Shown here one piece after another: positions 402 to 14,385 of a DNA stretch of 17,604 nt. Source of the DNA: a virus; the IMG/VR virus record IMGVR_UViG_3300021400_000219, positions 121,970-139,573 of that record; one strand, written 5' to 3'. The notes beneath the pieces were generated by a model. It made no database searches and had not been told where the DNA came from. It saw only the letters and a list, made by a program, of their open reading frames with translations. Each line of letters opens with the position of its first letter. Within the stretch, counting starts at the first letter, position 1. The position numbers and the translations under genes are program-made.

Positions 402-430
402 ATTATAACAAAAATTTTTTTGAAAATCAA
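402..430 (-). promoter_or_regulatory. Sigma-A-type promoter TTGATT-17-TATAAT for gene 1..367
   Basis: Hexamers and spacing read directly from the sequence. Confidence 0.5.
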
Positions 431-900
431 TAAAAACATTTAAAAAGGTAGTGAAATTGCCGAGCAAGATTTTCTCACGGAGAAACACTCATAAAGAGGT
501 AAAACGATATTAAATTGTAGGTTAAAAATGAAGCTTGGTAATCACCCCAGAGCAACCTCAGAAACGAGAAAATTTGAGGATTTGCTTTTTATAAAAATAT
601 ATAGTATAATATAAATGGGGGTAGTATCTTTACCGAGCACGTGGATTAGTATAATATACTATTTAATTAAATAAAATAACGTATAAAGTTTAGTTAAAAA
701 GTTATTTAATTTGATTTATTTTATTAAATATTTTATAATATAATGGGGAAATATTATTATTTTTTTAAAAAATAATAAAAATATCTAAGTATTATTATAT
801 ATAATAATATCTTTTTTATTTTATTATACCAAAAATTTTTTTAAAAATCAAATTTTTTTGTGTTTCCGATCGGAAAAAATAGTTTTTTTTAATATTATAA
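420..900. repeat. Extremely AT-rich block of about 480 bp, including a 20-bp perfect palindrome (TATTATTATATATAATAATA) and three GAAAATCAA repeats
   Basis: Base composition and repeats are visible by eye. No ORFs. Confidence 0.6.
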
Positions 901-924
901 CATATTTTTTTATGAAAATCAAAT

Positions 925-1120
925 CGGTAATAGGTGCGCGTGTGAGCTAAAACCGTGCATATGGGGTGTTGTTAAACCGGTCGGATTTGTGTTAGAAAAA
1001 GTTGCATATGAGATTGTGTTTTCGGGATTCGCGGGGGCGGCGCTGAAAGCCACTCGTGTGAGCAAAATTTTTGCATATGGGGGTCTTGTTCGGGCGCGCG
1101 GAAACGCCGCCAGCACACGC
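925..1120 (+). repeat. Three direct repeats of about 30 bp (CGTGTGAGC-N8-12-TGCATATGGGG-tgtt) in a GC-rich spacer. Iteron-like
   Basis: Copies at about 929-962, about 1003-1021 (partial) and about 1055-1092. They are adjacent to the AT-rich block. Confidence 0.45.
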
Positions 1121-1255
1121 CCGTGCGCCGGCGGTTCAAGGTGTGCCCTATTATGAGGGGTAAGCGTGTGAGCCCTTATAGCCTTAAAGGTATAAAGCTT
1201 TAAAGCTTTAAAGGTCTAGTTTTGCCCGGGCGAATTAGCGCAGGCTAACCGCAGG

Positions 1256-1292
1256 TAAAAATTAAACCCCCAGGGGTTTGGACCCCCTGGGG
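1256..1292 (-). terminator. Intrinsic terminator of the non-coding transcript
   Basis: 9-bp GC stem (CCCCAGGGG/CCCCTGGGG) followed by UUUAAUUUUU on the minus strand. Confidence 0.6.
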
Positions 1293-1586
1293 TAGGACCA
1301 TTTTTTGGCAGGTTGGTGTCCCTTCCACCTACGCTTGTTAAATAAATCCAGTAGGATACATGGTATCACCTCCATAGTATTTGAAACCACTCTTTGGCGG
1401 GCTGGCTTCTACTCCCATTCTATTACGTAAATCCAGAGTAATACATTTCTAAATCACCTCAACAATAATTTTTAATTCTTTAGTGTTTCGCTAGACGAAA
1501 CCTGTGGGGAACCTACGCATGGCCCTCTCTCCCTTCCTAGTCTATTCCGCAGGGGAGGTTTGGCGCCTTGCCCTCTCCCTTGGAAC
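1262..1586 (-). ncRNA. Candidate about 320-nt non-coding transcript bounded by a promoter and a terminator. It has a conserved leader (AUAAUUGUUCCAAGGGAGAGGG), a GTTTCG-tcta-CGAAAC tetraloop hairpin, and two tandem 7-codon mini-ORFs
   Basis: Promoter TTGACA-17-TATACT at 1593-1621 on the minus strand. Intrinsic terminator: hairpin CCCCAGGGG-N-CCCCTGGGG at 1267-1292 followed by UUUAAUUUUU. No ORF above 7 codons. Mini-ORFs MYYSGFT* and MYPTGFI* are each preceded by GAGGTGAT or GGAGGTGATACC. Confidence 0.5.
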
Positions 1587-1713
1587 AATTATAGTATAAC
1601 AGATAGGGCCGTATTTGTCAAGGGGTTTTTGAAAAAAATTTAATGGAATTTTCTGGAAGTTGCGCCCGGGCGCGTTAGCCTAAGCTAACTCCCAGATAAA
1701 GGGAAAGCGGGGA

Positions 1714-2843: not shown

Positions 2844-3536
2844 TTATTCCCCCTTTAGAGCCTTTCTATAAACCTGAACTTTACGCCAGCAATTATAAGA
2901 AATAGAATCATCAAAATCAAGGCCAGATTTAATAATTTTCATGTAAATCTGTCTTTCAATGTCCACATCTTCAAGCCCTGTATGTTCTTCAATAAAATCA
3001 GTATTATTAGTGATAAATCTATACGCAATTTCTGCGCTAGTTTGTACGTTGCCACAATCAGAAATAAATCCGTTGCGTTCTGCATAGTTAATAAAAGCGG
3101 GGGTTTTCAAAATAGAACTGCAAGCCATGTTCCAGATGCAAAAATATTCAGTATTATAAGGGAAAAACCAGCGGATAAAAGAACAAGTGATAAAACGTGC
3201 ATCATTATTTGTGGCCCGCTTGTCAAAGCCCATATTATACGCCCCTACTTTATAGGCGTTATACTCTCTCATGTCCGCCCACAAAATACGCCGAATATTT
3301 AACAGCTTTTTCAGGGTTCTTTTACCCTCTTTAATCTGCTCCCAATACTGCGGAATCTTTTCCGCAAAATAAGCGTTCTGCATCATTTCCTTATCAAGGA
3401 AAATTTCAGCCACAACGAAAGAACGCTCGACCAAAATCTCACCAGTGGTATTATCCACAATCTGGTAGCCCACATCATAGGGCAAAGGCTGTTCCACACA
3501 GTTGGCAGTCTCAGTATCAATAATCAGAATATTCAT
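2844..3536 (-). CDS. DEDDh-family (DnaQ-like) 3'-5' exonuclease (230 aa)
   Basis: Exo I motif ILIIDTETAN near the N-terminus and an H-x4-D motif (EHTGLEDVD) near the C-terminus. I set the start to the ATG at 3534-3536, which is preceded by GGGAATTGATACT. The N-terminal extension in the track is a translated promoter and leader. Promoter TTGCAA-16-TATAAT at 3592-3619. Confidence 0.65.
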   Translation of the reverse strand: MNILIIDTETANCVEQPLPYDVGYQIVDNTTGEILVERSFVVAEIFLDKEMMQNAYFAEKIPQYWEQIKEGKRTLKKLLNIRRILWADMREYNAYKVGAYNMGFDKRATNNDARFITCSFIRWFFPYNTEYFCIWNMACSSILKTPAFINYAERNGFISDCGNVQTSAEIAYRFITNNTDFIEEHTGLEDVDIERQIYMKIIKSGLDFDDSISYNCWRKVQVYRKALKGE

Positions 3537-3699
3537 AGTATCAATTCCCTTCTTTTTTTTCTTGGGGTTTCTGACCCCCTCAACAATTATTATTATAGCA
3601 GGTTTTTTGAAAATTGCAAGATGGTAAATTGCACAAAATGCGCAGGTAGTTTTTGTGCAAAATGCCGGGGCGCCCGGGCGGGAGTTAGCCGCAGCTAAC

Positions 3700-3834
3700 T
3701 CACCATGTATGCGTGTCAATGTATTCCACAAAATACCATGCAGGCATACAAAGATAATAAATACCTAACAGAAACAGGGCCGCAATAAGCTTAAAGGGAA
3801 ACAGAATATAATTTTTAATACGCTTTTTATTCAT
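3700..3834 (-). CDS. Small predicted membrane protein (44 aa, MNKKRIKNYILFPFKLIAALFLLGIYYLCMPAWYFVEYIDTHTW)
   Basis: I translated it by hand; it is under the track threshold. AAAGGA sits 9 nt before the ATG. One hydrophobic transmembrane-like segment. The TGA stop directly abuts the GTTAGCCGCAGCTAAC palindrome and GCCCGGGCG. Confidence 0.45.
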   Translation of the reverse strand: MNKKRIKNYILFPFKLIAALFLLGIYYLCMPAWYFVEYIDTHTW

Positions 3835-3878
3835 TTTTATTTATCCTTTCTTTTGGAATAATAGGGGGCTTGCGCCCC

Positions 3879-4229
3879 CTACTTTCTTTTTTGCGTCAAT
3901 GTCAACTCAAACTTCTTTCCGTCAACCTCAAAAGCAATAACTCTTTCCTTGTTAGTGATTTCAAGGTTATCAACGGAGTTAGTCAGAAAGTTAGCAATTT
4001 CCGCAATCAAATGGCCTTTGGTTTCGTTGGGTTTTCTTTCCCTTTTGGTGAATTTGTAAGCCGTAGGCTTTCTGTCTGCCTGCCTTGCTTTCTTTTCCAC
4101 CTTTTTCTGTTCAGCCGTCAAGGGGAACGGGTCTGCGCCCTTGTCGATTTCTTTATCAGTGGCAATGATTTCCATCGCTTCCTGTTCAGAAATATCAAGG
4201 ACTTTCATCAGTCTTTCCTTTTGGTTCAT
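3879..4229 (-). CDS. Family B protein, paralog 1 of 2 (116 aa), adjacent to a family A gene
   Basis: Start set to the internal ATG (codon 27 of the track ORF), which is preceded by AAGGGGTGATACC and promoter TTGACT-17-TATAAT at 4254-4282. Paralog of 9262..9615 with a shared KK..RQADRKP motif. The TAG stop is part of the TAGGGGGC/GCCCCCTA hairpin. Confidence 0.7.
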   Translation of the reverse strand: MNQKERLMKVLDISEQEAMEIIATDKEIDKGADPFPLTAEQKKVEKKARQADRKPTAYKFTKRERKPNETKGHLIAEIANFLTNSVDNLEITNKERVIAFEVDGKKFELTLTQKRK

Positions 4230-4253
4230 GGTATCACCCCTTCCTTGATTATT

Positions 4254-4282
4254 ATTATAAGGGATAGAGGGCCAAAAGTCAA
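4254..4282 (-). promoter_or_regulatory. Promoter TTGACT-17-TATAAT for family B gene 3879..4229
   Basis: Consensus hexamers. It is flanked upstream by two GTTAG/CTAAC palindromes and CCCGGG. Confidence 0.6.
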
Positions 4283-4363
4283 GATAAATTTGTTCGTCAA
4301 TTTGCACAAAAGTGGTTAGTATAGGCTAACCGCACCCGGGAGAGTTAGTGTGCGCTAACTTCC

Positions 4364-4392
4364 AGAAAAAGGAAAAGGCCCCACATGGGGCC
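4364..4392 (-). terminator. Intrinsic terminator after family A gene 4399..4761
   Basis: GGCCCCauguGGGGCC followed by UUUUCCUUUUUCU. Confidence 0.65.
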
Positions 4393-4398
4393 TAATCC

Positions 4399-4761
4399 TC
4401 AAATGTCCATGGCCTTGAAGTAGGTGACACGCTTGTCAACATACTTGTCAACCATGCCGTTGAGATACAGGGTGCGGAGCAGACCGCTCACCCGCTGGCT
4501 GGTAGCATCTGCCAGCTCAGGCACCCCAGCGCAAATCTCAGAGATGCGGAAACCCTTGTCCGAATCATCCCGCAGGAAATCCAGAATCTTGGAGCGAATG
4601 GCATCGTTTTCCACCTGCTTGGCGGAAGGCTTGCGCTCAGCCGTGGACTTCTTGGCAAAGCCCTCGGCAATCTTTTCCAGCTTCTCCCGCAGGGCAGTTT
4701 CCTCAGCAGGGACGAAAGTCAGGGCCATCTCAATAGCAGTCTTATTAGTCAGCTTAGTCAT
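4399..4761 (-). CDS. Family A winged-helix-like DNA-binding protein, paralog 2 (120 aa)
   Basis: Start set to the ATG at 4759-4761, preceded by AGTGAGTGATACT; the identical context occurs at paralog 4. Promoter TTGACA-17-TATAAT at 4831-4859, with a second promoter TTGCAA-16-TATAAT at 4961-4988. A strong intrinsic terminator (GGCCCCatgtGGGGCC plus UUUUCCUUUUUCU) follows directly after the TGA. Confidence 0.75.
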   Translation of the reverse strand: MTKLTNKTAIEMALTFVPAEETALREKLEKIAEGFAKKSTAERKPSAKQVENDAIRSKILDFLRDDSDKGFRISEICAGVPELADATSQRVSGLLRTLYLNGMVDKYVDKRVTYFKAMDI

Positions 4762-5037
4762 AGTATCACTCACTTTCTCCGTTTTAACGAGTTCGGCTCT
4801 CAATCTTTTGTTTTCCTTTACTGTACTTGTATTATAGCACAGCTTGGGGAGTTTGTCAAGAGGTTTTGAAAACTTTTTTCGGATTATTTTACACCGACCA
4901 TTAACTCTCAAGGAGTGGCTCTCTTTCGCTCGCCGTCCCCAACCCCTCTTGACATTTATTATTATAGCAGATTTCTCCCAAATTGCAAGATGGGATTTTG
5001 CACAAATTAGATTAACTTCTTTTGGTTAAAATGTCAA

Positions 5038-5066
5038 TAGACAAGCGCATGTTTTTGTGATAAAAT
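5038..5066 (+). promoter_or_regulatory. Plus-strand promoter TAGACA-17-TGaTAAAAT. It fires convergently toward the 3' end of gene 5171..5458 and into GC-rich element A
   Basis: Hexamers and spacing. A TTGCACAA box sits upstream, and a divergent minus promoter (TTGCAA-16-TATAAT at 4961-4988) sits back-to-back with it. Confidence 0.45.
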
Positions 5067-5069
5067 TAG

Positions 5070-5145
5070 TGGGGGGTCTGCGCGCGGCGGCACCGGCCGT
5101 TATCGGGACGCGCGTGTGTGTGCGTGTGTCGCTTTAAAGAGCTAA
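5070..5145 (+). repeat. GC-rich element A, with alternating purine-pyrimidine runs: GCGCGCG...CCGGCCGTTA...CGCGCGTGTGTGTGCGTGTGTCGC...CTTTAAAG..CTAAAG
   Basis: One of five related copies. The others are at about 1085-1215, 10410-10480, 14045-14125 and 16950-17040. Each ends in CCCGGG or the gene-end hairpin. Confidence 0.55.
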
Positions 5146-5170
5146 AGCGCCCGGGAGAGTTAGCGAGGGC

Positions 5171-5458
5171 TTACCCCTCGCTCGTATCTACTCCCAGAAT
5201 AATCAACAGACTACAGATAGTGCCCCACGCATGGACGCCCATGTCCTCAGGGATTGCATCCCACACATCAGGATACAGACGGCGCACACCAGAGAGAAGC
5301 ATCCCGCCCCAGTTACCACCGCAAGCGGTACACAAGTCAAGGAAATCTTTAAAACTCATTTTAGTTTTCTGCGCCATGCACGCATAGACAACAACTTCAT
5401 CGCCCCACTCGTTCCGCACAGTATCAAGGGCTTCCATGAAATCAGAATGAAGAATCAT
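5171..5458 (-). CDS. Hypothetical protein (95 aa)
   Basis: Its start overlaps the stop of the upstream small basic gene (ATGA overlap at 5455-5458), with AAAGGAG 8 nt upstream. The TAA stop is in the loop of the CGAGGG/CCTCG hairpin. Confidence 0.65.
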   Translation of the reverse strand: MILHSDFMEALDTVRNEWGDEVVVYACMAQKTKMSFKDFLDLCTACGGNWGGMLLSGVRRLYPDVWDAIPEDMGVHAWGTICSLLIILGVDTSEG

Positions 5459-5601
5459 CTTGCACACTCCTTTCTCAAATCAGCTTTCAGATGGTGGCGA
5501 GCCATCCGCCGACAACTTCTCTTAATGTTTCTGTTGGAATAGGAATCAGTCCAGTAACGCCCACGGCGCAGACCCACACTCTTAGCCTTGAAGTTATTCA
5601 T
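5455..5601 (-). CDS. Small, very basic protein (48 aa, R/K-rich), possibly nucleic-acid binding
   Basis: Internal ATG of track ORF 5455..5673, preceded by AGAGGGAGGAA. Promoter TTGACA-17-TATACT at 5632-5660. First gene of a two-gene operon. Confidence 0.55.
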   Translation of the reverse strand: MNNFKAKSVGLRRGRYWTDSYSNRNIKRSCRRMARHHLKADLRKECAR

Positions 5602-5716
5602 TGCTTTGTTCCTCCCTCTTGGATTGTCTATAGTATAGCAGATAATCAGGGATTTGTCAATACTTTTGGACAAAAAAGTTTAAGGAAATATTTTCCAGGG
5701 CCCGGGCACTTGGAAA

Positions 5717-5995
5717 TTACTCCCAAGTCCCTTCCAGATAAAGCTGGATAATTCTAGTAGCCATTTTCTTGGGCTCCAGCATAGTCACGTCATCCTCATC
5801 CCAAGGGAACTGATAGGATTCAACCATTCCCTTGTCACTCCCATAGGTACCAGCATGACAAGCAACATCACCTTCATGCCAAGGGAAACGCAACTGCATC
5901 CCTTCAAAAATAGGATTAACAGTGAAAGGAACGCTTGCAAAAGTCAGGCAGGCAATCACAGCATTAATAGCATCAGTATACTTGTTAGTGAACAT
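5717..5995 (-). CDS. Hypothetical protein (92 aa)
   Basis: Start at the ATG at 5993-5995, preceded by AAAGGAGGAA. Promoter TTGACA-17-TACAAT at 6026-6054 with a short conserved leader (GACTACAGTAAAACAAAGGAGG). The TAA stop is in the loop of the ACTTGG/CCAAGT hairpin. Confidence 0.7.
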   Translation of the reverse strand: MFTNKYTDAINAVIACLTFASVPFTVNPIFEGMQLRFPWHEGDVACHAGTYGSDKGMVESYQFPWDEDDVTMLEPKKMATRIIQLYLEGTWE

Positions 5996-6025
5996 TTTTT
6001 GTTCCTCCTTTGTTTTACTGTAGTC

Positions 6026-6054
6026 ATTGTACCACATGGTAAAGCATTTGTCAA
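6026..6054 (-). promoter_or_regulatory. Promoter TTGACA-17-TGgTACAAT with an upstream UP-like element (AATTCCATTAAATTTTTTTGAAAAA)
   Basis: Hexamers and spacing. The same roughly 50-bp upstream module recurs at 1625-1665, 6583-6635, 7351-7395, 8589-8633 and 9181-9225. Confidence 0.65.
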
Positions 6055-6115
6055 TAGGTTTTTCAAAAAAATTTAATGGAATTTTTTTCCAGTTACCCGG
6101 GCGTGTGCTGGAAAT

Positions 6116-6295
6116 TTATTCCAGCACTTCCACCTCTTCCCAATCCCAAAACTCTTCATTAGGATTCCAGAATGTGGCAAAATCATCACATTCATCAATG
6201 GCAGAAACTCCCAGTTTACAGCGTCCATCCTTTTCCCAGTAGGGACAATCCCAGCCGTTGACAGTGCAGTAAATAACCATTCTTTTTTCTTTCAT
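6116..6295 (-). CDS. Small Cys-rich acidic protein (59 aa, C-x6-C-x8-C-x9-C), possibly metal-binding
   Basis: Under the track threshold. Its ATG overlaps the TGA of gene 6292..6504 as an ATGA overlap. GGAAAGTGATACA sits before the ATG. The TAA stop is in the loop of the GCTGGAA/TTCCAGC hairpin next to CCCGGGCG. Confidence 0.5.
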   Translation of the reverse strand: MKEKRMVIYCTVNGWDCPYWEKDGRCKLGVSAIDECDDFATFWNPNEEFWDWEEVEVLE

Positions 6296-6504
6296 TGTAT
6301 CACTTTCCTTTCTTCAAGTTCACAATCTTCACGAGTCATTAGATAATCAAACTCTTTCAAGCACTCATAGTTTCCCGCAAGCGCATACTCTACAATATCT
6401 CTTGCAGTAGTCCAAGCAATGTAGTTTTCAGCATCGCAATGGTCAATCCTTGCATCAAAGATGTGGCGCAGGGTATCCACAATTTCAGACGAGATAATAT
6501 ACAC
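6292..6504 (-). CDS. Hypothetical protein (70 aa, GTG start)
   Basis: ORF-track frame. GGAAGGTGATACATT precedes the GTG. Promoter TTGACA-17-TATACT at 6554-6582 with the conserved leader UUGUUCCAAGGGAAGG. Confidence 0.55.
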   Translation of the reverse strand: MYIISSEIVDTLRHIFDARIDHCDAENYIAWTTARDIVEYALAGNYECLKEFDYLMTREDCELEERKVIQ

Positions 6505-6647
6505 AATGTATCACCTTCCTATTGGATTTGTTTCCTTCCCTTGGAACAACTATAGTATAGCACAGCAGAGGGTCTTTGTCAATACTAAATTGAAAAAAAT
6601 TTGATGGAATTTTTGGAAATGTTTTCCAGTGCCCGGGTGATGGTGAC

Positions 6648-6827
6648 TTAGTCACCATCCCTTTCTTCAAATTCACATACAGGACAAATAAAATCTCTAA
6701 AGTCTTCCTCTTCCCAATCAGATTCATAGATAGGCTCGCCGCACTCGGGACAATTATAAAATCGTTCATCCCAATTTACGAAACCGCCGAATACATTTTC
6801 AACAATCTTTGCATTCAGTTCCCACAT
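6648..6827 (-). CDS. Small zinc-ribbon-like acidic protein (59 aa, CPEC...CPVC, D/E-rich C-terminus)
   Basis: Internal ATG of track ORF 6648..6908, preceded by AAGGAGGT with 7 nt spacing. That SD site overlaps the stop of the upstream 34-aa peptide gene. The TAA stop is in the loop of the GGTGAC/GTCACC hairpin. Confidence 0.6.
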   Translation of the reverse strand: MWELNAKIVENVFGGFVNWDERFYNCPECGEPIYESDWEEEDFRDFICPVCEFEERDGD

Positions 6828-6840
6828 GGAATTTACCTCC

Positions 6841-6945
6841 TTACCAACCAAAAATCCGAGAGAGTATAACAAGTATTGCATCAAATACAGCTCCAATACC
6901 AATGGCACCCATAATCATCCAAAATAAAACATCCATGTCTTTCAT
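6841..6945 (-). CDS. Tiny hydrophobic membrane peptide (34 aa, MKDMDVLFWMIMGAIGIGAVFDAILVILSRIFGW)
   Basis: Hand translation. GAGGGAGGT sits 6 nt before the ATG. Promoter TTGACT-16-TATACT at 6975-7002 sits immediately upstream with no other ORF available. Single transmembrane segment. Confidence 0.45.
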   Translation of the reverse strand: MKDMDVLFWMIMGAIGIGAVFDAILVILSRIFGW

Positions 6946-7041
6946 GTTATTACCTCCCTCATTTCTGTAATTATAGTATACCACAAATTATCCAAAAGTC
7001 AAGTTACAATTTGGTTACAAACACCCGGGCGCGAAGGTGAC

Positions 7042-7281
7042 TTAGTCACCCTCATTCGTCTTCATTGGAAACAGGTCGTCCAGATTGGTAACACCTGGAA
7101 TAAATTCAGTAATAAAAGAAAAAGGTCTTGCTTCTGCCAATTCTACGTTGTCAATGTCCCACACATCATCAAAGGCTTCTTCGCACGGCGGGCGTAATCC
7201 CTTCCAAAATTTGGTTTCTGCTTCCTCTGCGGTTTCCGCTTCAATCATGCAATAACCAGAAAAATCAATGTACCATTTCAT
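7042..7281 (-). CDS. Small highly acidic protein (79 aa), candidate DNA-mimic or anti-defence protein
   Basis: ORF-track frame. AAAGGAG sits 9 nt before the ATG. Promoter TTGACA-17-TATACT at 7322-7350. The TAA stop is in the loop of the same GGTGAC-tta-GTCACC hairpin used by 6648..6827. Confidence 0.7.
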   Translation of the reverse strand: MKWYIDFSGYCMIEAETAEEAETKFWKGLRPPCEEAFDDVWDIDNVELAEARPFSFITEFIPGVTNLDDLFPMKTNEGD

Positions 7282-7321
7282 TAGATGATACTCCTTTCAT
7301 TTCTTTTCTTAGGTTGAGTAT

Positions 7322-7350
7322 AGTATAACACTTCACAGGGCATTTGTCAA
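7322..7350 (-). promoter_or_regulatory. Promoter TTGACA-17-TGtTATACT for acidic gene 7042..7281
   Basis: Consensus hexamers and an extended -10. Confidence 0.65.
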
Positions 7351-7439
7351 TAGAAAATTGAAAAAAATTTAATGGAATTTATTCCCATTTACCCGGGCGC
7401 GTTAGCTGCTGCTAACTCTGGAAGAAAAAGGAAGGGGGA

Positions 7440-7805
7440 TTACTCCCCCTTCACCTGGAAGCGGCTGACCCGCTTCTCCACAACCTTCTCCACGGTTCCA
7501 GCTTCTACCAGCTGGCGCAGAAGGGCGGAAGCCTGCTGGCTGGAAGAGAGTTCCAGTTCGGCGGCTACTTCCTTCGCCTGCATAGGCTCGTGGTCAGTCA
7601 GCAGTTCAACGATGCGGGCCTTGATACCCTCGTTTTCAATCTGCTTCTTGGTGGGCTTGCGCTCGCCCTTGGACTTGGAAGCGTTCCGCTTCTCATAGCT
7701 GGCCTTGCAAGCAACCAGCTTTTCCATGGCTTCCTCGTTGAAGTCAGCGGGCAGGGAAGCAATAGCCATTTCCAGAGCCTTCACATAAGTCATCTTGTTA
7801 GTCAT
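7440..7805 (-). CDS. Family A winged-helix-like DNA-binding protein, paralog 3 (121 aa)
   Basis: Start set to the ATG at 7803-7805 (GGTAGTGCATACT context). The C-terminus (...VEKRVSRFQVKGE) parallels paralog 1. The stop is in the loop of the AAGGGGGA/TCCCCCTT hairpin. Two tandem promoters at 7880-7908 and 8019-8047. Confidence 0.75.
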   Translation of the reverse strand: MTNKMTYVKALEMAIASLPADFNEEAMEKLVACKASYEKRNASKSKGERKPTKKQIENEGIKARIVELLTDHEPMQAKEVAAELELSSSQQASALLRQLVEAGTVEKVVEKRVSRFQVKGE

Positions 7806-8117
7806 AGTATGCACTACCTTTCTCTGTTTTAACGAGTTCAGCTCTCAATCTGTTTTGTTCTTTCCCTTACTGTGGCTTTATTATACCACAGGTTCAGGGG
7901 TTTGTCAAGAGTTTTTTTGAATTTCTCTTGATTTTTTTGGAGCCATTTTTTAGGTGGGCTACTTCCAACACCCGACTGTTGGCGGTTTTTTAGGTGCGCT
8001 CCCTCACCCGACATCATTATATTACCACAGGTTGCTCCATTTGTCAAGGGTTTTTTCAAAAGTTTTTTCTGGAATTTCTACCAAGATTTTCCAGCGACCC
8101 GGGCGAGTTAGCGGGGG

Positions 8118-8495
8118 TTAACCCCGCTTGTACTCTTTAGTGCCCATAGAGTAAGGAATGTTGTACATCTCACAAGCTTCAATGGCGTACCCGATTGCCA
8201 GATTTGCCATTTCCTGGGCTTGCTCATACTTTCTGTTAGGGGTAATCTTGTAAAGAAAATGGTCATTCTGAACCTGTTCAAACAAGTAGGACATTTTCAG
8301 TCGTGCATGAGCTTCGACGGCAAGCCGCTCAGATTTGGTAGCTTTTGGCATTTTAATCCATGCTAAACACTGAAAATGTTCATTCTGTCTGATGCTGGAA
8401 AGACGCTGTGCTGGGGTGTCTTTGCCAGTTTCACCCAGCTTGAAAACACCATTCTTACGGCAGAAATAATTAAAACCAGTATAAAAGCAAGCCAT
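8118..8495 (-). CDS. Hypothetical protein (125 aa)
   Basis: ORF-track frame. Promoter TTGACA-17-TATACT at 8560-8588. The TAA stop is in the loop of the AGCGGGG/CCCCGCT hairpin next to CCCGGGCG. Confidence 0.65.
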   Translation of the reverse strand: MACFYTGFNYFCRKNGVFKLGETGKDTPAQRLSSIRQNEHFQCLAWIKMPKATKSERLAVEAHARLKMSYLFEQVQNDHFLYKITPNRKYEQAQEMANLAIGYAIEACEMYNIPYSMGTKEYKRG

Positions 8496-8649
8496 TATTC
8501 ATTCTCCATTCATTTTTTATTGATTGGGGTTTACCTTCGTTCCCCTCAACCTTGATTATAGTATAGCAGATAGGAATGGATTTGTCAATACCTTTTTTCA
8601 AATTTTTTAATGGAATTTTTTTCCAGTTGCCCGGGCGCAGGAGTTAGCA

Positions 8650-8955
8650 TTAGCTAACTCCATTTTCTTCCAGACAAAATTCAAAACTCAAATCTTTTAC
8701 CACTTTTTGGGAAATGTATTCACGCACAAGGAAAAGCTCTAAATCTCTAGCCTGCTCCTCTACATAGCTACGGCGCAAATCGCGCACAGTGGAAAGATTT
8801 ACCATCGGGTATTCCATAGGATAACCACGCGCAACCACAATTACATTGTAAAGATTTTCCACGGGGTTCACCCTCATTCTCTTTTTCTTCTGGAATTTAT
8901 TGGTTTTATTGCGTTCAACTTTCGTTCTAAATTCTTTCATTTTTGCCTTGCTCAT
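8650..8955 (-). CDS. Hypothetical protein with a basic N-terminus (101 aa)
   Basis: Start set to the ATG at 8953-8955, which overlaps the TGA of the upstream membrane-protein gene (ATGA). The TAA stop lies in the loop of the GTTAGC-atta-GCTAAC palindrome. Confidence 0.6.
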   Translation of the reverse strand: MSKAKMKEFRTKVERNKTNKFQKKKRMRVNPVENLYNVIVVARGYPMEYPMVNLSTVRDLRRSYVEEQARDLELFLVREYISQKVVKDLSFEFCLEENGVS

Positions 8956-9119
8956 GAGAACACACCCCCAAAATGAAGCACCCAAAATAAACAACAAACC
9001 CCACTCATTGCCATTTCAATATACAAAACAGGGCGGTAATTATCCTCGGCAGTATCCAGCTCTTTCCAGCTCCAAAGGAAAATCACCATTAGCACAATCG
9101 CAATAATCAAATCTTTCAT
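8952..9119 (-). CDS. Small membrane protein (55 aa, one N-terminal transmembrane helix)
   Basis: Internal ATG of track ORF 8952..9140, preceded by CAGGAGGT 7 nt upstream. Promoter TTGACA-17-TATACT at 9152-9180. Confidence 0.6.
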   Translation of the reverse strand: MKDLIIAIVLMVIFLWSWKELDTAEDNYRPVLYIEMAMSGVCCLFWVLHFGGVFS

Positions 9120-9261
9120 TTTAATTACCTCCTGGTTCATTTCTTGAGTATAGTATAACAGATGGGAGAGGATTTGTCAATACCTTTTTTAGAAAAATTT
9201 ACTGGAAATGTTTTCCAAGTGCCCGGGCGGCGCTTTAGCGCACTGAAGCGCTAAAGCATCC

Positions 9262-9615
9262 TCACTTTCTGGGGGCTGATAATACTACTTTGTATTTAGT
9301 ATTTTCAAACGTAAAAATAAACTCTCTTTCTACGTTGGTTATTTCTAACGCTTCCCCGCCATTTTCATTTATTGCGGTTGTGAGAATATCCATTATTGCG
9401 CGTTTTGCGTTGTTTGCTTTACGTTCCTTTTTGGGGAATTTATAAGCGGATACTTTGCGGTCAGCTTGACGCATTTTTTTTGCTACTTTCTGTTGTTCAG
9501 AATTTAACTCAAAAAGTTTTGCCCCGTGGTCTATTGCATCATCATCAGCTAATACTTGTTTAGCTTCTTCCTCTGTCAAATCTAATACCTGCATTAAATG
9601 TTCGATTCTCTCCAT
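9262..9615 (-). CDS. Family B protein, paralog 2 (117 aa). Co-transcribed with the family A gene upstream
   Basis: AAAGGGGGT sits 8 nt before the ATG. There is no promoter or terminator between it and 9645..10019. The TGA stop is followed by the GCTTTAGCGC/GCGCTAAAGC hairpin. Confidence 0.75.
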   Translation of the reverse strand: MERIEHLMQVLDLTEEEAKQVLADDDAIDHGAKLFELNSEQQKVAKKMRQADRKVSAYKFPKKERKANNAKRAIMDILTTAINENGGEALEITNVEREFIFTFENTKYKVVLSAPRK

Positions 9616-9644
9616 TTTTATTTACCCCCTTTTTGGGGAGGGGG

Positions 9645-10019
9645 TTAAACCCCCTCACCCATGGCCTTGAAATAAGTAATGCGCTTATCTACGTACTTAT
9701 CTACCATTCCGTTCAGGTAGAGCGTCCGCAGAAGTCCGCTCACCCTCTGGGAAGTCGCATCGTTCAGAGCGGGAACACCTGCGCAGATTTCAGAGATACG
9801 GAAACCTCTGTCCACATCTTCCCGCAGGAAATCCAGAATTTCCGCACGGACGGCGTCGTTCTCTGCCTGCTTTGCGCTAGGCTTGCGGGGAGCGGTGTTC
9901 TTCTTAATGGCCTGTTCCTTCATCTTCTCCAGCTTTTCCACAACATCCGTCATGTCAGCGGGAACGTAGGACAGAGCAACTTCCAGAGCCTTAACAGTAG
10001 TCATCTTATTGGTAGCCAT
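9645..10019 (-). CDS. Family A winged-helix-like DNA-binding protein, paralog 4 (124 aa)
   Basis: Start at the ATG at 10017-10019 (AGTGAGTGATACT context). It is almost identical to paralog 2 over the C-terminal 70 aa. The TAA stop is in the loop of the GGGGAGGGGG/CCCCCTCACCC hairpin. Tandem promoters at 10073-10101 and 10225-10253. Confidence 0.75.
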   Translation of the reverse strand: MATNKMTTVKALEVALSYVPADMTDVVEKLEKMKEQAIKKNTAPRKPSAKQAENDAVRAEILDFLREDVDRGFRISEICAGVPALNDATSQRVSGLLRTLYLNGMVDKYVDKRITYFKAMGEGV

Positions 10020-10072
10020 AGTATCACTCACTTTCTCTGTTTGTGGGGTTTATCAGCTCCCCTTGATGTATT

Positions 10073-10101
10073 AAGTATAGCACAGGTTGAAGGGTTTGTC
10101 A
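10073..10101 (-). promoter_or_regulatory. Proximal promoter TTGACA-17-TGcTATACT for family A gene 9645..10019. A distal promoter TTGACA-17-TATATT lies at 10225-10253
   Basis: Consensus hexamers. Tandem double promoters are seen before all four family A genes. Confidence 0.6.
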
Positions 10102-10629
10102 AGAGTTTTTTGCAGTTTTTCTGATTTTTTTTGTGAGAACCACGAATGGAAAAAACTCTCAAAAAATTATCGTTTGAAACTCTGTCCCTAGGGCTTTGGG
10201 GCCCCTTGCCCTTTGGACAAGTATAATATAACACATTGGGGCGCGTTTGTCAATACTGATTTGAAAATTTGGGGGCATTCTCTGTTTTGCACAATTTTGA
10301 TGCAAAAATTGCGTCATTTTTGTGCATTTTGACGGCGCGCCCGGGTGAACTACCAATTTCAGGAAAAGCTGGGGTCAAGAGAGAACAAGGAAATTCATTG
10401 AAAAATTTGGTAACGATTTCCAGCGCGCGACACCGGAACCCCTGGGCCGTGTGCGTGTGCGACGGGTGCACGCAGTATTTATTTATACAAGCGGAACTAA
10501 TAGAAAAATCAATTTAAAATATTTATACATATTTATTTATTATTAAGGGTACCGGCGCAATTCTCAAATCAAAAACCTTCCAGGTCTATTTACTTCTGGA
10601 AAATGAAATAAAAATAGGGGCTGATTTAT

Positions 10630-10731
10630 TTTCAAAAATGAGATGAAAAAACGAGAGTATTTCTTTCGTAGATTCAAAGGAAACAATTTCGTTTTTCAAT
10701 CCAAAAATCATAAGGAAACACTCTCGTTTTT
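10630..10731 (-). terminator. Large hairpin terminator (12-bp stem AAAAACGAGAGU/ACUCUCGUUUUU with a roughly 60-nt loop), followed by a second terminator at 10566-10601
   Basis: Perfect 12-bp inverted repeat at 10647-10658 and 10720-10731, followed on the minus strand by UCAUCUCAUUUUUG. The second hairpin, UUCCAG-N12-CUGGAA, is followed by GGUUUUUGAUUUG. Confidence 0.5.
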
Positions 10732-10735
10732 CAAT

Positions 10736-10888
10736 TCAGAAATCTTCAATTTTTTTATTTTTTTCTTTGGCTCGATTATACTCTGAACCTTTGCCCTTTT
10801 TATTAGCTATTCTTTTGGACCTTTTCCGCAGAGTATTTAAACCATCACCATCAGTCTTTTTAATTTCTTTAACGGTTTTTTCATCCAT
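10736..10888 (-). CDS. Small lysine-rich basic protein (50 aa, MDEKTVKEIKKTDGDGLNTLRKRSKRIANKKGKGSEYNRAKEKNKKIEDF)
   Basis: Hand translation; under the track threshold. GGGAGGT sits 9 nt before the ATG, which lies just after the TAA of HAD gene 1. Its TGA stop is immediately followed by a large terminator hairpin at 10647-10731 and a second terminator. Confidence 0.45.
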   Translation of the reverse strand: MDEKTVKEIKKTDGDGLNTLRKRSKRIANKKGKGSEYNRAKEKNKKIEDF

Positions 10889-10891
10889 TTA

Positions 10892-11341
10892 TTAAAGACC
10901 TCCCAGAACTTCAAGAATATTATTTACATCATAGGCATTTCCGCCTGCATTATTCCATTCAATTCTATTTCTTTCTTCATCATCAAACAGGATGCCGATT
11001 TCATTTACTACGGTACTTTTGGGGGTGCCATAGGAAACAATTTTCACATCATCAAAATGGACGCTTGCCAGATGTTTTTTTAACCACATCTTTTTTGCTT
11101 CTGTTACAACCTTGTTGTAATCGGGGTTATCTTCCTTAGAGAGCCAAGAGACAACACCAATTTTCCATCCAAGGGCCTGTAACTTGTTCAGCTTGTGGGC
11201 CAGCGCAGAAAGCCGAATCAGGGGTTTTGCGATTTCATAGGGAAGGGGATTTCTCTCAATTAGATAGGAGAGCCAATTTTCCACGCCATACAGATCGGCA
11301 ATAGTCCCATCCATGTCGAAATAAATAGCCTTGTTCATCAT
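10892..11341 (-). CDS. HAD-superfamily hydrolase, 5'(3')-nucleotidase-like, paralog 1 (149 aa)
   Basis: Motif I (IYFDMDGTIADL) and motif IV (GILFDDEE). Start set to the ATG at 11339-11341, downstream of promoter TTGACT-17-TATTAT at 11390-11418. The 30-aa N-terminal extension in the track is translated leader. Confidence 0.7.
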   Translation of the reverse strand: MMNKAIYFDMDGTIADLYGVENWLSYLIERNPLPYEIAKPLIRLSALAHKLNKLQALGWKIGVVSWLSKEDNPDYNKVVTEAKKMWLKKHLASVHFDDVKIVSYGTPKSTVVNEIGILFDDEERNRIEWNNAGGNAYDVNNILEVLGGL

Positions 11342-11485
11342 TCTGACCAACCCTTTCTTTAAAAGGTTTTTTATCTTTTCTGTATTATTATAATACCAAA
11401 TTTTTTTATAAAAGTCAATAGGGAATCGCAAATTTTAGAAGTTTGTGCAATTTGCACAAAAGCGCCCGGGCGAGTTACCCTGTGC

Positions 11486-11725
11486 TTACAAGGTAACTTT
11501 GCACTGTCTAAAATCATGCCACAGATGGGGCTGAGTCAGCGGAGACCGCAGGGAATAAGCTTGGTATTGCAAGAAAGATAAAATGCGGATTTCTGTTATT
11601 GTAGTTTCATCATCTAAATCAAACTTTTTATTTATTACAGAGCCGTGCAATCTGCCAGGGGTTTTTGCAAAAACTTTAGTAGTAAAACCAAACGGGTCCA
11701 TAATCTTAATCTCATAATAATTCAT
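11486..11725 (-). CDS. Hypothetical protein (79 aa). Second gene of an operon. Its 3' extent is uncertain
   Basis: ATG at 11723-11725, preceded by AAAGGAGAA 9 nt upstream. The C-terminal third reads through a hairpin-rich region, so the gene may be shorter than annotated. Confidence 0.45.
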   Translation of the reverse strand: MNYYEIKIMDPFGFTTKVFAKTPGRLHGSVINKKFDLDDETTITEIRILSFLQYQAYSLRSPLTQPHLWHDFRQCKVTL

Positions 11726-11765
11726 TTTTTTATTCTCCTTTCTTTTGGCGTATTCTTTCGGGGTT

Positions 11766-11927
11766 TTATCCCCGAAAGATAACATTTCCAGAGAGGTTAT
11801 TTACAAGCTTGACAGGCTCGTTTTTAACCATGGCCAGGGTTTCGGCCAGAATCTTAATGGCCCGCAGGTCATTCATAGAGGAAACGGGGGTCTTGCCCAC
11901 GTAGATGGTAAACAGAGTGATATTCAT
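11766..11927 (-). CDS. Small hypothetical protein (53 aa)
   Basis: Internal ATG, preceded by AAGGAGGT 7 nt upstream. Promoter TTGACA-17-TATAAT at 11960-11988. The TAA stop is in the loop of the 10-bp stem TCTTTCGGGG/CCCCGAAAGA. Confidence 0.55.
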   Translation of the reverse strand: MNITLFTIYVGKTPVSSMNDLRAIKILAETLAMVKNEPVKLVNNLSGNVIFRG

Positions 11928-12046
11928 TGAAGTTACCTCCTTATTCATTTCGTACCCTTATTATAAGCGATGTTTTGCGATTTGTCAAGGGGTTTATGCG
12001 ATTTTTCTTCTGGAATTTTTTGGTTATGGCGCCCGGGTGGCTGGCC

Positions 12047-12490
12047 TTACCCGATATGGGCGGCCAGCCAAGCCAGCATCTTTTTGCTTTCTTTAGCGCA
12101 CCGGATTTTCATCCCGCCGCCGTTCTTCTGGCTTTCCCGCTCGGTCTTGCAGAACTCGGTGCAGAAGGCGGTGAACTCGTCCCGGTTCATCATATAGACC
12201 TGATAATCGGCGGTAACGTAGGCCCAGAGGTTGCTGTGGGTGCGCTCCATATAGAGGGCCCAGATTTCATCATAAGTTTCCCGGCCTTCGCACAGGGTGG
12301 CGCTCATAAGGGTGAAGGCAGAAGCCTTGACGGAGATGAGCATTTCACCAAGCTCGATATCAGAGCCTTTGTCATATGCACCGCTATCATGGGTGGTGCG
12401 GTCGATGCCCATATAGTGGCACAGATCGTGCTCACGGGCAATGCCCTTATTAGTAGCGGGGGAAACGTGGTCAATCTTGAAGGTCTTCAT
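12047..12490 (-). CDS. Hypothetical protein (147 aa)
   Basis: Start at the ATG at 12488-12490, preceded by AGGAAAGGGAG. Promoter TTGACT-17-TATACT at 12522-12550. The TAA stop is in the loop of the GGCTGGCC/GGCCAGCC hairpin. The overlapping plus ORF 11927..12523 is rejected. Confidence 0.65.
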   Translation of the reverse strand: MKTFKIDHVSPATNKGIAREHDLCHYMGIDRTTHDSGAYDKGSDIELGEMLISVKASAFTLMSATLCEGRETYDEIWALYMERTHSNLWAYVTADYQVYMMNRDEFTAFCTEFCKTERESQKNGGGMKIRCAKESKKMLAWLAAHIG

Positions 12491-12726
12491 CTGAAGCACT
12501 CCCTTTCCTTAGGATGGTTATAGTATAGCACCATTCCCCGGGATAGTCAATACAAAATCGCAAATTTCCCCTTGTGCAAATTATACAAATGTTGGAGCGG
12601 ATTTTTGGGGGCTGTTGTGCAAGTTGCACAATTAGTGTAACCTGGGTCACATTAAAAGTAACAAAAGAGTTACAATCTCTAACAATCAATTACAATCTTT
12701 TTTTTACTTTCAAAACACTTTTTTTA

Positions 12727-12911
12727 AGTTAGCAGTTAGCAAAGGGTAATGCTAGTTAGCACAAGCTAATTGTTGTTAGTTCGAACTAACTCCGGTTAGC
12801 AGGGACTAACTGGAGTTAGCCTAGGCTAACTTTAGCACACTAAAGCTGTAGCGATTTAGCGAACTAAAGTGCGCCGGACCTGGCAATTTGAACAATTAGC
12901 GGCTGCTAACT
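12727..12911. repeat. Array of eight short palindromes of the GTTAGC-N4-6-GCTAAC or TTTAG-N4-CTAAA type
   Basis: Read directly from the sequence: AGTTAGCAGTTAGCA, TTAGCacaaGCTAA, GTTAGTTCGAACTAAC, GGTTAGcagggaCTAAC, AGTTAGCCTAGGCTAACT, CTTTAGcacaCTAAAG, TTTAGcgaaCTAAA, TTAGCggctGCTAA. The same palindrome type sits at nearly every gene junction. Confidence 0.7.
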
Positions 12912-13169
12912 TTGTGCATTTTGACGAGGTTTCGGGATTCGTCAAGTTGCACAAAAATGTAACCAAATTGTAACCAAAATTTGTGCAATTTGACGGTGGC
13001 GCGAACTCGGCTGCCAACGACTGCGCTGGGCCACAGTGCACTCGTTGGCGGCCGGTTCGTCATTTTGCACAAATGCGTGCGTGCGAGGGGCCTTAACTTT
13101 ATGCATTATGACGAAAAAAAATTTTTGTGCAAAATGACGAATCAAATCCTGATTCGTCAAAATGCACAA

Positions 13170-13463
13170 AAAAAGAGGCATTGCCCGGCCTCATCGGGGG
13201 GAAGCTTGACGCCCTTCCCTGGCGGTGGTGTCCACTTTCGGGGACACGCCCGGCTCCGTTTGCTAGCCGCAGGAGCGTCGCGGCGCTGGGGTCGTTCCCT
13301 TGCCCCTTGGGGAACTTGATGGCCTCCATTTCTATCCCGCGGCCTTGGGGGCGGCCTAGCTACTTTGTGGGGAGTATCGCCCACGTTTCGCCGACGCGGC
13401 TGGGATTTTGGTGTCATCGCGCATCCCGTGCGCTCAAGAGGGACAAGTCAACCTCTTTTCTAT
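13170..13463 (-). ncRNA. Candidate GC-rich structured non-coding RNA of about 290 nt
   Basis: Promoter TTGACA-17-TATAAT at 13470-13498 on the minus strand. Intrinsic terminator GAGGC-N8-GCCUC followed by U7, at 13167-13192 in plus coordinates. GC content is far above the window average. There is no SD site and no conserved ORF. It contains a GTGTCCCC-GAAA-GTGGACAC tetraloop hairpin and a GUGGGCGAUACUCCCCAC hairpin. Confidence 0.45.
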
Positions 13464-13540
13464 GGTCTTATTATAGCACCCGCAAGGGGTTTTGTCAAGG
13501 GTTTTTTCTTTTTTTTTTTTTGTTCCCGGAGGGCCGGGGC

Positions 13541-13699
13541 TTAGTAGCCCCAGCCGATGGAGGTTACCCTCCATCCCTCCTCCCGCAGTGCGGGATAAAG
13601 GGCGGCGAAACTCGCCAACCCGTGTTCCCACACACGGGACTCACAGGCCCACAGGCCAGTGAAGAGGTTCCGATGGAACCGGATGTATTCAATTTTCAT
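13541..13699 (-). CDS. Small hypothetical protein (52 aa, W-rich)
   Basis: Internal ATG of track ORF 13541..13816, preceded by AAAGGAGGT. Promoter TTGACA-17-TATAAT at 13720-13748 with the conserved leader GATTACAGTAAAACAAAGGAGG. The TAA stop is in the loop of the GGGGCT/AGCCCC hairpin. Confidence 0.55.
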   Translation of the reverse strand: MKIEYIRFHRNLFTGLWACESRVWEHGLASFAALYPALREEGWRVTSIGWGY

Positions 13700-13759
13700 G
13701 GAAGTGACCTCCTTTGTTTTACTGTAATCATTATAGCAGACCCGCCCGGGTTTGTCAAC

Positions 13760-13925
13760 CCTTTTTTTCATTTTTTTTATTTTTTTTTGGTTCCCCATAC
13801 CCCTCCGGGGAACCACTGGCCGGCTATTTTTTACCTCCCGCCCTAGGGGGTGGCCCTTGGTACTTTGTGGGGTATCTTGCCCACGTTTCCCAGAGGGAGG
13901 GCCCGGAGGGTTTCCCCTCCTGACA
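13760..13925 (-). ncRNA. Second GC-rich non-coding segment, a partial paralog of the 13170-13463 RNA
   Basis: It shares about 30 nt with the other RNA (GAAACGUGGGC.AGAUAC.CCCACAAAGUA). It lies downstream of a weaker promoter, TAGACT-17-TATTAT, at about 13930-13960. It ends in the hairpin GGUUCCCC...GGGGAACC, followed by an A-rich run rather than a U-run. Confidence 0.3.
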
Positions 13926-14007
13926 TGATTATAATACCACAGGCCCGGCTAAAAGTCTATTGACAAATCTCACAAATCGGGATGTTCTATTTTGTGCATT
14001 TTTACTC

Positions 14008-14037
14008 TTGACAGCCGAGCCTATTTTGTGGTATAAT
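14008..14037 (+). promoter_or_regulatory. Plus-strand promoter TTGACA-18-TGgTATAAT, transcribing into GC-rich element B
   Basis: Near-consensus hexamers. The conserved upstream sequence GCATTTTTACTCTTGACA is shared with the promoter at 16916. Confidence 0.55.
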
Positions 14038-14138
14038 ATTTCTGTACTGCCTGCGCGCGCGGTCGCCGGCCGTTAGCGGGGGCTAACTGTGCCTGGGTGT
14101 GCGCCTTTATTGCAATAAAGCACTAAAGTGCACAAGGG

Positions 14139-14171
14139 CAAAAAACTACGAGGATTTTTTAATCCTCGTAG
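14139..14171 (-). terminator. Intrinsic terminator overlapping the stop codon of 14159..14290
   Basis: CUACGAGGAU-UAA-AAAAUCCUCGUAG followed by UUUUUUG. The stop codon is in the loop. Confidence 0.65.
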
Positions 14172-14290: not shown

Positions 14291-14385
14291 AATCTTTTTT
14301 CCTTTCTGGTTTGTTAGGTTTTCCTTCCCTCTTTCTGATTGTATTATAGCAGACTCAACCGGGTTTGTCAACCCCTTTTTCAAAT

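Follow-up and report, generated by a model that had tools for sequence, protein, structure and literature searches.

Near the left end of a 17,604-nucleotide (nt) stretch of viral DNA (IMG/VR virus record IMGVR_UViG_3300021400_000219, positions 121,970 to 139,573; hereafter the window, numbered from its first letter), a long array of small genes ends at an interval that contains no gene, and the question raised by this interval is what it does for the phage. An original prediction, made from the letters of the window, placed a candidate replication origin or genome terminus at positions 420-1215. Comparison with related loci shows that a conserved, gene-free and cis-acting region ends the array of early gene cassettes, that the A+T-rich block of this region is made up of five putative promoter motifs, some of them opposing, and that its repeats are copies of a locally unique bipartite motif kept across three lineages. 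The best reading of the region, if a tentative one, is a transcription control and boundary region with putative protein-binding repeats, and the same DNA may also serve replication.

Judged by its sequence, the source of the window is a TAG-recoded gut phage and a distant relative of phage phAss-1 (OQ749652, "Caudoviricetes code 15 clade"), because window positions 3,000-15,500 correspond by tblastx to 127-135.4 kb of phAss-1 and because genes of the relatives past the window's left end contain in-frame TAG codons. A search of the phage collection with the window returned no close match. The predicted host of phAss-1 is a member of the Clostridia (PMC10607447). Loci related to the region were obtained through exact-protein look-ups, a protein family search, an IMG/VR motif hit (L014, L033, 138.8-kb contig) and a GTDB motif hit (L042). 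The IMG/VR motif scan gave 17 chance matches and one true relative (L014), the GTDB motif scan gave two chance matches and one relative (L042), and scans with proteins, run on IMG/VR and JGI metagenomes, contributed L033 and L039 alone.

Extent and coding content of the gene-free interval

The gene-free interval covers positions 368-1713 (1,346 bp), from the start codon of a minus-strand gene at 367 (ATG 367-365; 163 amino acids (aa) in the relatives) to the stop codon of the minus-strand gene that ends at 1714 (122 aa, 1714-2082). It holds no open reading frame (ORF) longer than ~65 aa, so the earlier statement that no gene is encoded across about 800 bp holds, and over a larger span. Readthrough of TAG, TGA or TAA gave no credible gene in the interval in any genetic code; the resulting frames cross terminators and are broken by indels in relatives, and a 145-aa gene call in L036 that follows one of them was judged spurious. 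Searches of the region against Rfam, at gathering thresholds and also at E <= 5, and scans for tRNA and tmRNA yielded no match, and phage and plasmid collections contained no similar DNA except for a 44-bp promoter match to phAss-1. Readings of the region as attP or parS were rejected, as no integrase or ParAB genes lie nearby and the anatomy of the repeats is wrong for either.

A cluster of promoter motifs in the A+T-rich block

The original prediction described positions 420-900 as almost entirely A and T and took this block for unwinding DNA. The description is accurate for 601-900 (14.7% G+C) but not for 420-600 (30.9%), giving 20.8% for 420-900 as a whole, compared with 51.4% for 930-1215. 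The block is also not featureless, and is better explained as a promoter cluster, since four sites of the form TTGATT-17-TATAAT are found within 395-930, where 0.32 are expected and where none of 500 dinucleotide shuffles of the same stretch reached four. Together with a fifth site, TTGCTT-17-TATAAT, they form one family of five host-type (sigma-70/sigma-A) promoter motifs, and copies of these promoters make up the largest repeat families of the region (D1, D6). Three of the motifs (PL1, PL2 and PL3) point left toward the 163-aa gene, and two (PR1 and PR2) point right.

The gene-proximal motif PL3 (402-430, minus strand) is a TTGATT-17-TATAAT site with an extended TG, followed by ATATATAGAAAATGAGAAAGG, with a predicted start at ~395; it is predicted to drive the 163-aa gene and to be the first promoter of the second class described below. 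Back to back with it stands PR1 (582-621, plus strand; family D6), in which TTGCTT-17-TATAAT (582-610) is followed by a G run at 617-621 that contains the predicted start. In L035 and L036, PR1 retains its two hexamers at a distance of 17 bp despite a different spacer, with a -35 hexamer that is improved to TTGATT. The spacer between PL3 and PR1 (441-581) is moderately conserved (70-96% identity) around the cores ATTGCCGAGCAAGAT and GGAGAAACACTCAT, and RNAalifold predicts a weak structure for it. PR2 (691-748, plus strand) has TTGATT at 711-716, TATAAT at 734-739, a G run at 745-748, an upstream A/T block and a predicted start at ~745. It faces PL2 (823-851, minus strand; family D1), a TTGATT-17-TATAAT site with an extended TG and a predicted start at ~816, and PL1 (894-922, minus strand), of the same composition and with a predicted start at ~887, lies in tandem with PL2 at a distance of 71 bp. 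The predicted starts of PR2 and PL2 are ~70 bp apart, within the overlap of less than ~100 nt expected of the convergent promoters in a face-to-face switch of the 186 pR/pL type. In L035, L036 and L037, the hexamers and their 17-bp spacing are kept even where the spacers differ.

Between PR2 and PL2 lie palindromes composed only of A and T (754-809), consisting of a 25-bp near-perfect palindrome at 754-778 and, at 790-809, the 20-bp perfect palindrome TATTATTATATATAATAATA that had been noted originally. The sequence of the latter is not conserved: the corresponding place in L035, L036 and L037 is taken by two other A/T palindromes, perfect over 20 and 18 bp, and it is thus the palindromic A/T property that is kept. 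A further palindrome, TTTCCGATCGGAAA (863-876), has arms that are kept in relatives and a variable central 2 nt. The window has ten perfect palindromes of 14 bp or more, and half of these, five, fall within 660-1213.

Bipartite repeats and G+C-rich palindromes

Directly upstream of PL1, and interleaved with G+C-rich palindromes, are copies of a rigid bipartite 28-mer, CGTGTGAGC-N9-RCATATGGGG, which was defined by comparison with relatives. Two copies are full and two degenerate, all in one orientation. Where three direct repeats of ~30 bp had been proposed, repeats do exist, but only two of the three are full, the third retains the head alone (1165-1192), and a fourth (986-1013) had been overlooked. 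The exact sequence CGTGTGAGC occurs at three sites, 939, 1055 and 1165, and nowhere else in the 17.6 kb, and TGCATATGGGG occurs at 956 and 1072 only.

The first unit, U1 (939-966, plus strand), is full (CGTGTGAGC-TAAAACCGT-GCATATGGGG; repeat family D11) and scores 35 bits with a position weight matrix (PWM). U2 (986-1013, plus strand; repeat family D14) has kept its tail and lost its head to decay (TTTGTGTTA-GAAAAAGTT-GCATATGAGA). The full unit U3 (1055-1082, plus strand; CGTGTGAGC-AAAATTTTT-GCATATGGGG) is 82% identical to U1 and is the copy best kept in distant lineages, with 90% identity over 32 nt to L014 and related copies in L042. U4 (1165-1192, plus strand) shows the reverse of U2, a kept head and a decayed tail (CGTGTGAGC-CCTTATAGC-CTTAAAGGTA), and in L036 this tail reads TTATAGGCG. 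From start to start, the units are spaced by 47, 69 and 110 bp in the window and by 46-110 bp in L036, and the overall range of 46-116 bp reflects variation both within and between genomes.

After U3 comes a G+C-rich inverted repeat (1104-1134) with arms of ~12 bp and a 4-nt center; in L014 and L042 a unit is likewise followed by a G+C-rich palindrome, of different sequence. A tandem repeat of the palindrome CTTTAAAG (1186-1213) contains perfect palindromes of 18 and 16 bp, and positions 1194-1215 are identical in all five aligned genomes, with an 8-bp copy just upstream deleted in L002. A copy of the dispersed motif GCCCGGGCG (1224-1232) follows the repeats, as part of the last cassette-boundary element copy (1224-1248), which also includes a small TTAGC..GCTAA hairpin. 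The intrinsic terminator of the last early cassette (1268-1292, minus strand) lies just outside the reported 420-1215.

When the repeat was sought elsewhere, the PWM scan found the unit only in the studied region of every 20-kb locus, and none in phAss-1. The absence of any other PWM copy in these 20-kb neighborhoods, together with a poor match to sigma-70 hexamers, led us to reject the units as a dispersed phage-specific promoter. The possibility that ATGGGG starts tiny ORFs was rejected because the ATG is lost in L036 and L037, and a CRISPR-like array or solitary repeat because the gaps (19-88 bp) vary in length and the unit is unconstrained in its central 9 nt.

A border between two promoter classes

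The genes of the window are small, lie nearly all on the minus strand and each have their own near-consensus sigma-70-type promoter. A promoter scan of the window gave 87 promoter-like sites compared to 32 expected, with ~40 strong ones on the minus strand. In the early array, the spacers follow a common order on the minus strand at ~20 sites: stop codon, hairpin, GCCCGGGCG, a short operator-like repeat, an A-rich tract and TTGACA-17-TATA(A/C)T (-10 also written TATAMT). At up to one mismatch, GCCCGGGCG has 39 matches on both strands (~20 sites), against 2.2 expected. We call these TTGACA promoters behind GCCCGGGCG class I; ~40 of them lie to the right of the studied region.

Class II promoters share a 40-nt consensus of TTGAyw, an A7T5 spacer, TATAAT and ATATATAGAAAaTGAGAAAGG, with the start region ATATATAGAAA. 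This class begins at PL3 (402-430) and continues downstream in L001 (13831, 14919 and 18883), L036 and L033. In phAss-1, 24 class II copies lie between 55.8 and 125.8 kb, and strong promoters without the A7T5 spacer cluster at 127.7-135.9 kb. The shared consensus suggests a dedicated factor or a temporal class. With the class I array to the right and class II from PL3 leftward, the studied region is the border between two promoter classes.

Coding also changes here. Genes with 3-6 in-frame TAG codons were seen in L001 past the window's left end (12338-12724 and 13063-13686 on the minus strand, 16242-16901 on the plus strand), among them genes for a MarR-type HTH protein (207 aa) and an NlpC/P60 peptidase, and all window genes are readable in the standard code, so that recoding begins directly after the studied region.

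Conservation of the region

The order of elements was compared in seven genomes: the window, L001, L002, L037, L036 and L035, which have the full layout, and L033, which has a shorter version. The core order is invariant in all seven, running from the last CCCGGG through three to four CATATG/GTGTGAGC units, the forward promoter or promoters, A/T palindromes, one to two reverse promoters and the proximal promoter to the gene of the 163-aa family. The window lineage has two forward promoters in tandem and L033 has one, and L033 has neither the A/T palindromes nor the reverse promoters. In the distant lineages L014/L033 and L042, CCCGGG, a class II promoter and the units with their G+C-rich palindromes are kept, and the 163-aa protein has a homologue (31% identical in L014); the long A+T block and the rightward promoters are missing. 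Had the original prediction been wrong about the repeats, they would be expected to vary among relatives; they and their layout are instead conserved in seven genomes and three lineages and unique in each locus, which identifies the region as a real cis-acting noncoding region.

Conservation is concentrated in islands. Compared with L035, positions 691-770 are 92.5% identical, 855-925 93%, 1049-1140 96.7% and 1190-1262 90.4% (range 90-93%), and the adjacent gene has 75.9% DNA identity; the noncoding repeat islands are thus better conserved than the flanking ORFs. Positions 771-854, 926-1048 and 1141-1189 are largely replaced in this comparison.

The L042 locus is SFNX01000030.1, a 31.9-kb contig binned as a Lachnospiraceae metagenome-assembled genome, in which the region lies at 4340-5430. 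This binning may be a hint to the host or an artefact. In L033, CCCGGG recurs every 0.5-1.5 kb across 9.6 kb and ends exactly at the studied region.

A proposed control and boundary region, and what weighs against it

In the reading that we prefer, the 28-bp units would be binding sites for a sequence-specific protein of the phage or the host, and the promoters, if active, would together with the bound units govern the hand-over from the early cassettes to the next class. The unit-binding protein and interference between the opposing promoters would time the advance of transcription from the class I cassettes to the part of the genome with class II promoters, so that the region would switch between the two programmes of transcription or insulate one from the other. 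In a separate and improbable reading, the four units of the same direction, all of which end in a G run, would form a battery of rightward starts together with PR1 and PR2, from which antisense transcription back through the early array would shut the array off. Face-to-face promoter switches are known from coliphage 186 (pR/pL) and phage P2 (Pe/Pc). As in these, strong convergent promoters with predicted starts ~70 bp apart imply transcriptional interference; unlike in these, neither a gene behind the rightward promoters nor an attached repressor gene is present, and only one lineage shows the arrangement.

Several observations weigh against this assignment. All promoter start points are predictions, and the rightward PR1 and PR2 have no gene to drive, as no downstream ORF was found in any genetic code. 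The opposing promoters and the long A+T block occur only in the window lineage, L014/L033 and L042 keeping the units without them, and the L042 units are separated from the closest strong promoter by ~280 bp. The operators of dimeric repressors do not usually consist of asymmetric direct units, and a unique, conserved repeat cluster beside A+T-rich DNA equally matches the look of an origin. The 163-aa family was considered as the partner that binds the units and rejected, as its members are acidic (pI, the isoelectric point, 4.6-4.8) and have no Pfam or PDB match.

Alternative explanations

The main alternative, a replication origin in which the units bind an initiator and the A+T-rich neighbor melts, as in the iteron model, is possible but doubtful. 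Like lambda ori, P1 oriR and iteron plasmids, the region has a unique cluster of direct repeats beside A+T-rich DNA, and the cluster is conserved and uniformly oriented; 40-70 bp of A+T-rich DNA still adjoin the units in each distant lineage. Of the proposed iteron-type layout, the conserved cis-acting repeats were borne out. The defining features of an iteron origin were mostly not seen: iterons are at least three tandem repeats of ~17-22 bp that are helically phased, whereas the units here are 28 bp long and bipartite, only two are intact, and the distances between them (46-116 bp) are irregular, differ among relatives and show no helical phasing. DnaA boxes (TTATCCACA, at most one mismatch) are absent from 368-1713, and among the neighbors within 10 kb, most of them of unknown function, no family of initiators, helicase loaders or Rep proteins was recognized; Pfam and PHROG scans of the flanking window genes and of downstream genes of L001 and L036 likewise returned no Rep, O or initiator family, which does not prove absence. 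The coding-strand GC skew is the same on both sides of the region in three loci (+0.08 to +0.11) and is lower downstream in L035 (+0.017), and the whole-genome skew extremes of phAss-1 track strand switches at 3.5 and 43 kb and not the phAss-1 gap. Conserved promoters take up the A+T-rich DNA beside the units (601-900), L014/L033 and L042 lack the long A+T block and have only the 40-70 bp, and nothing similar was found in plasmid or phage collections.

An origin could also work by transcription. The T7 primary origin (promoters 1.1A/1.1B), which lies at the boundary between early and next-class genes, and T4 oriF and oriG are promoter-dependent phage origins, with a promoter directed into an unwinding element. 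In this variant, PL1 and PL2 would transcribe into the palindromic stretch of 10-15% G+C and the RNA would prime replication. By sequence alone, PL1 (922 to 894) and PL2 (851 to 823) do point into 754-809: two tandem strong promoters lie directly upstream of an extremely A+T-rich stretch with perfect A/T palindromes, whose palindromic character is kept while its sequence is replaced, and the region occupies the same early/next-class border as the T7 origin. The promoters here are, in contrast, of host type and not dependent on a phage RNA polymerase or MotA, they are faced by opposing promoters, and the A+T block is missing in two related lineages.

A location at or near a DNA end is another alternative. 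Terminal repeats are invisible in collapsed assemblies. The pseudo-circular contig of phAss-1 was linearized by its authors according to PhageTerm (PMC10607447). They opened it within an ordinary cassette spacer, where the class I array has its outer end; the comparable gene-free gap (123,463-124,840), which has phased T tracts and no units, is 11.1 kb away. In this relative, the only one with a PhageTerm result, a terminus at the gap is therefore not supported, and a genome end at the studied region is unlikely. Contig ends near 883/884, 1080 and 567 are equally explained by assembly breaks in A+T-rich or variable DNA and were set aside as uninformative about a terminus. A broader form of this explanation, in which an early segment that enters first or is terminally repeated has its inner limit at the region (a stop like the T5 iss, or the end of a long terminal repeat) or in which the region is a packaging site, is improbable.

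In layout, the studied region mirrors the T5 untranslated repeat region 3/iss (bioRxiv 10.1101/866236; AY587007 annotation): both are devoid of genes over 1.2-1.7 kb, and both close off, on the inner side, a group of small early genes in which a deoxyribonucleotidase gene is present. The 1.3 kb of gene-free DNA studied here are rich in repeats and palindromes, the noncoding islands exceed the flanking ORFs in conservation, and two of the early genes next to them are deoxyribonucleotidase-like. In phAss-1, the class I array abuts the PhageTerm-chosen end and the gene-free gap lies 11.1 kb (8.2%) inside, and SPO1 has its host-takeover module within a terminal redundancy of 13 kb (PMC10531801), the end of which the region would also resemble. 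The region has no similarity in sequence to T5, and the DnaA box pairs that T5 has in large inverted repeats are absent here; the host is of Firmicute type and not E. coli, and the region has strong predicted promoters in both directions. From the observed position of the region at the end of the class I array, one may picture an early array that enters the cell ahead of all other DNA and may belong to a long terminal repeat, with the region as its inner stop or boundary. This would be a T5-iss-like device for two-step entry, or for bounding a terminal repeat, of unrelated sequence, in a TAG-recoded siphovirus of gut Clostridia; we regard this picture, too, as improbable.

A noncoding RNA locus is a further, unlikely explanation. 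PR1 and PR2 would give rightward RNAs of 0.55-0.7 kb containing the units and G+C hairpins, serving as a protein sponge or as antisense to the PL1 and PL2 transcripts, and PL1 and PL2 would give the 163-aa gene a long structured leader. Conserved promoters without a downstream ORF fit this proposal, as do the conserved G runs at the predicted starts and the nonconserved ATG of ATGGGG, which argues against coding; the hairpin at 1104-1134 is more stable on the minus strand through G-U pairs, and the minus strand of 925-1300 folds with z = -2.96. The plus strand of the same segment has z = -1.68, covariation terms among five sequences are near zero, Rfam gave nothing even at the relaxed threshold, large indels and replaced segments fall within the putative RNA, and convincing terminators of the rightward RNAs were not seen. 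PR1 and PR2 may give transcripts; a structured RNA gene is not supported.

It is very improbable that the region is a set of decayed, empty cassettes, that is, leftover promoters and spacers of lost genes without present function. The array is plastic, with cassettes and 86-bp units gained and lost between close relatives, and 771-854, 926-1048 and 1141-1189 are poorly conserved. Decay is contradicted by the four islands, which are 90-97% identical where the neighboring gene is 76% identical, by the invariant order of elements in seven genomes and by the persistence of the units where flanking proteins are ~31% identical.

Significance for TAG-recoded phages

To our knowledge, phAss-like TAG-recoded gut Firmicute phages are known only from assemblies, and their transcription programme, origin and DNA ends are undescribed. 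Control regions of this kind are known from phages, and the transcription control and boundary region proposed here adds an example from a group in which no such element has been described before. It provides a concrete, conserved landmark, with an exact border between promoter classes, five predicted start sites and a unique 28-bp bipartite motif. If the region controls the switch from early to next-class genes, it would be a link between the standard-code early genes and the later, recoded part of the genome.

The early cassette array

The cassettes that end at the region resemble the PeSL cassettes of the hyperplastic regions of T4-type phages (PMC2839356, PMC4122927) and the SPO1 host-takeover module (PMC10531801), in which small early genes are likewise accompanied by a composite hairpin or terminator, a strong early promoter and a shared boundary motif, here GCCCGGGCG. 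As with PeSL cassettes, the content of the surrounding array varies between close relatives. The sequence of the motif, the host and the phage group are different, and the studied interval is the gene-free end of the array and not a standard cassette.

A palindromic motif, (C)GCCCGGGC(G), is present in nearly every intergenic spacer of the early array (~20 sites in the window), ~50 bp upstream of the -35 hexamer and directly after the hairpin of the preceding gene, with examples at 1663-1672, 2302-2311, 3671-3680, 8629-8637, 11463-11472 and 14995-15004. Between GCCCGGGCG and the -35 hexamer on the minus strand, we observed TGGAAA..TTTCCA inverted repeats, TGTAAC-N5-TGTAAC direct repeats and TTGTGCAAATTGCACAA palindromes (2262-2311, 8589-8638, 11419-11472 and further spacers). 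These short repeats look like operators for different regulators and would define sub-families of promoters.

In the right part of the gene-free interval, positions 1262-1621 (minus strand) form a complete promoter-to-terminator cassette that has no gene and contains only two tandem 86-bp units. Each unit has a strong Shine-Dalgarno sequence and a 7-codon ORF (MYYSGFT*, 1446 to 1423; MYPTGFI*, 1361 to 1338), and the peptide pattern M-Y-[YP]-[ST]-G-F-[TIV] is present in one to two copies in all relatives of the lineage (MYYSGFI in L037, MYPTGFV in L035). Compared with the window, L005 has an additional cassette of ~370 bp with its own CCCGGG near 1624, and other close relatives differ at 1540-1575 and 1020 by inserts of ~90 bp and 29-53 bp (29 bp in L002 and L006-L009, 52-53 bp in L010 and L005) or by the loss of one 86-bp mini-ORF unit. 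Recombination in the spacers of the early array appears to be active.

Paralogous genes recur along the array. Four winged-helix-like paralogues (1714-2082, 4399-4911, 7440-7814 and 9645-10031) end in ...LLRQ/TL..G.V.K...KR..YFKA, and a 117/142-aa protein is present in two copies (3879-4307 and 9262-9615). The two 5'-deoxyribonucleotidase-like HAD proteins (10892-11431 and 15023-15487; PHROG 2643, E = 6e-13) resemble T5 Dmp in the HAD motif only. No ORF in the second most A+T-rich stretch of the window (10480-10760, ~28% G+C) is more than very short, and the promoter-like sites of this stretch are weak. Where the array is unusually rich in G+C, a strongly Arg/Pro-rich 86-aa ORF (MTPKSQPRRRNVGDTPHKVARPPPRPRDRNGG...; 13157-13417, minus strand) lies directly behind a perfect TTGACA-17-TATAAT promoter (13498 to 13470).

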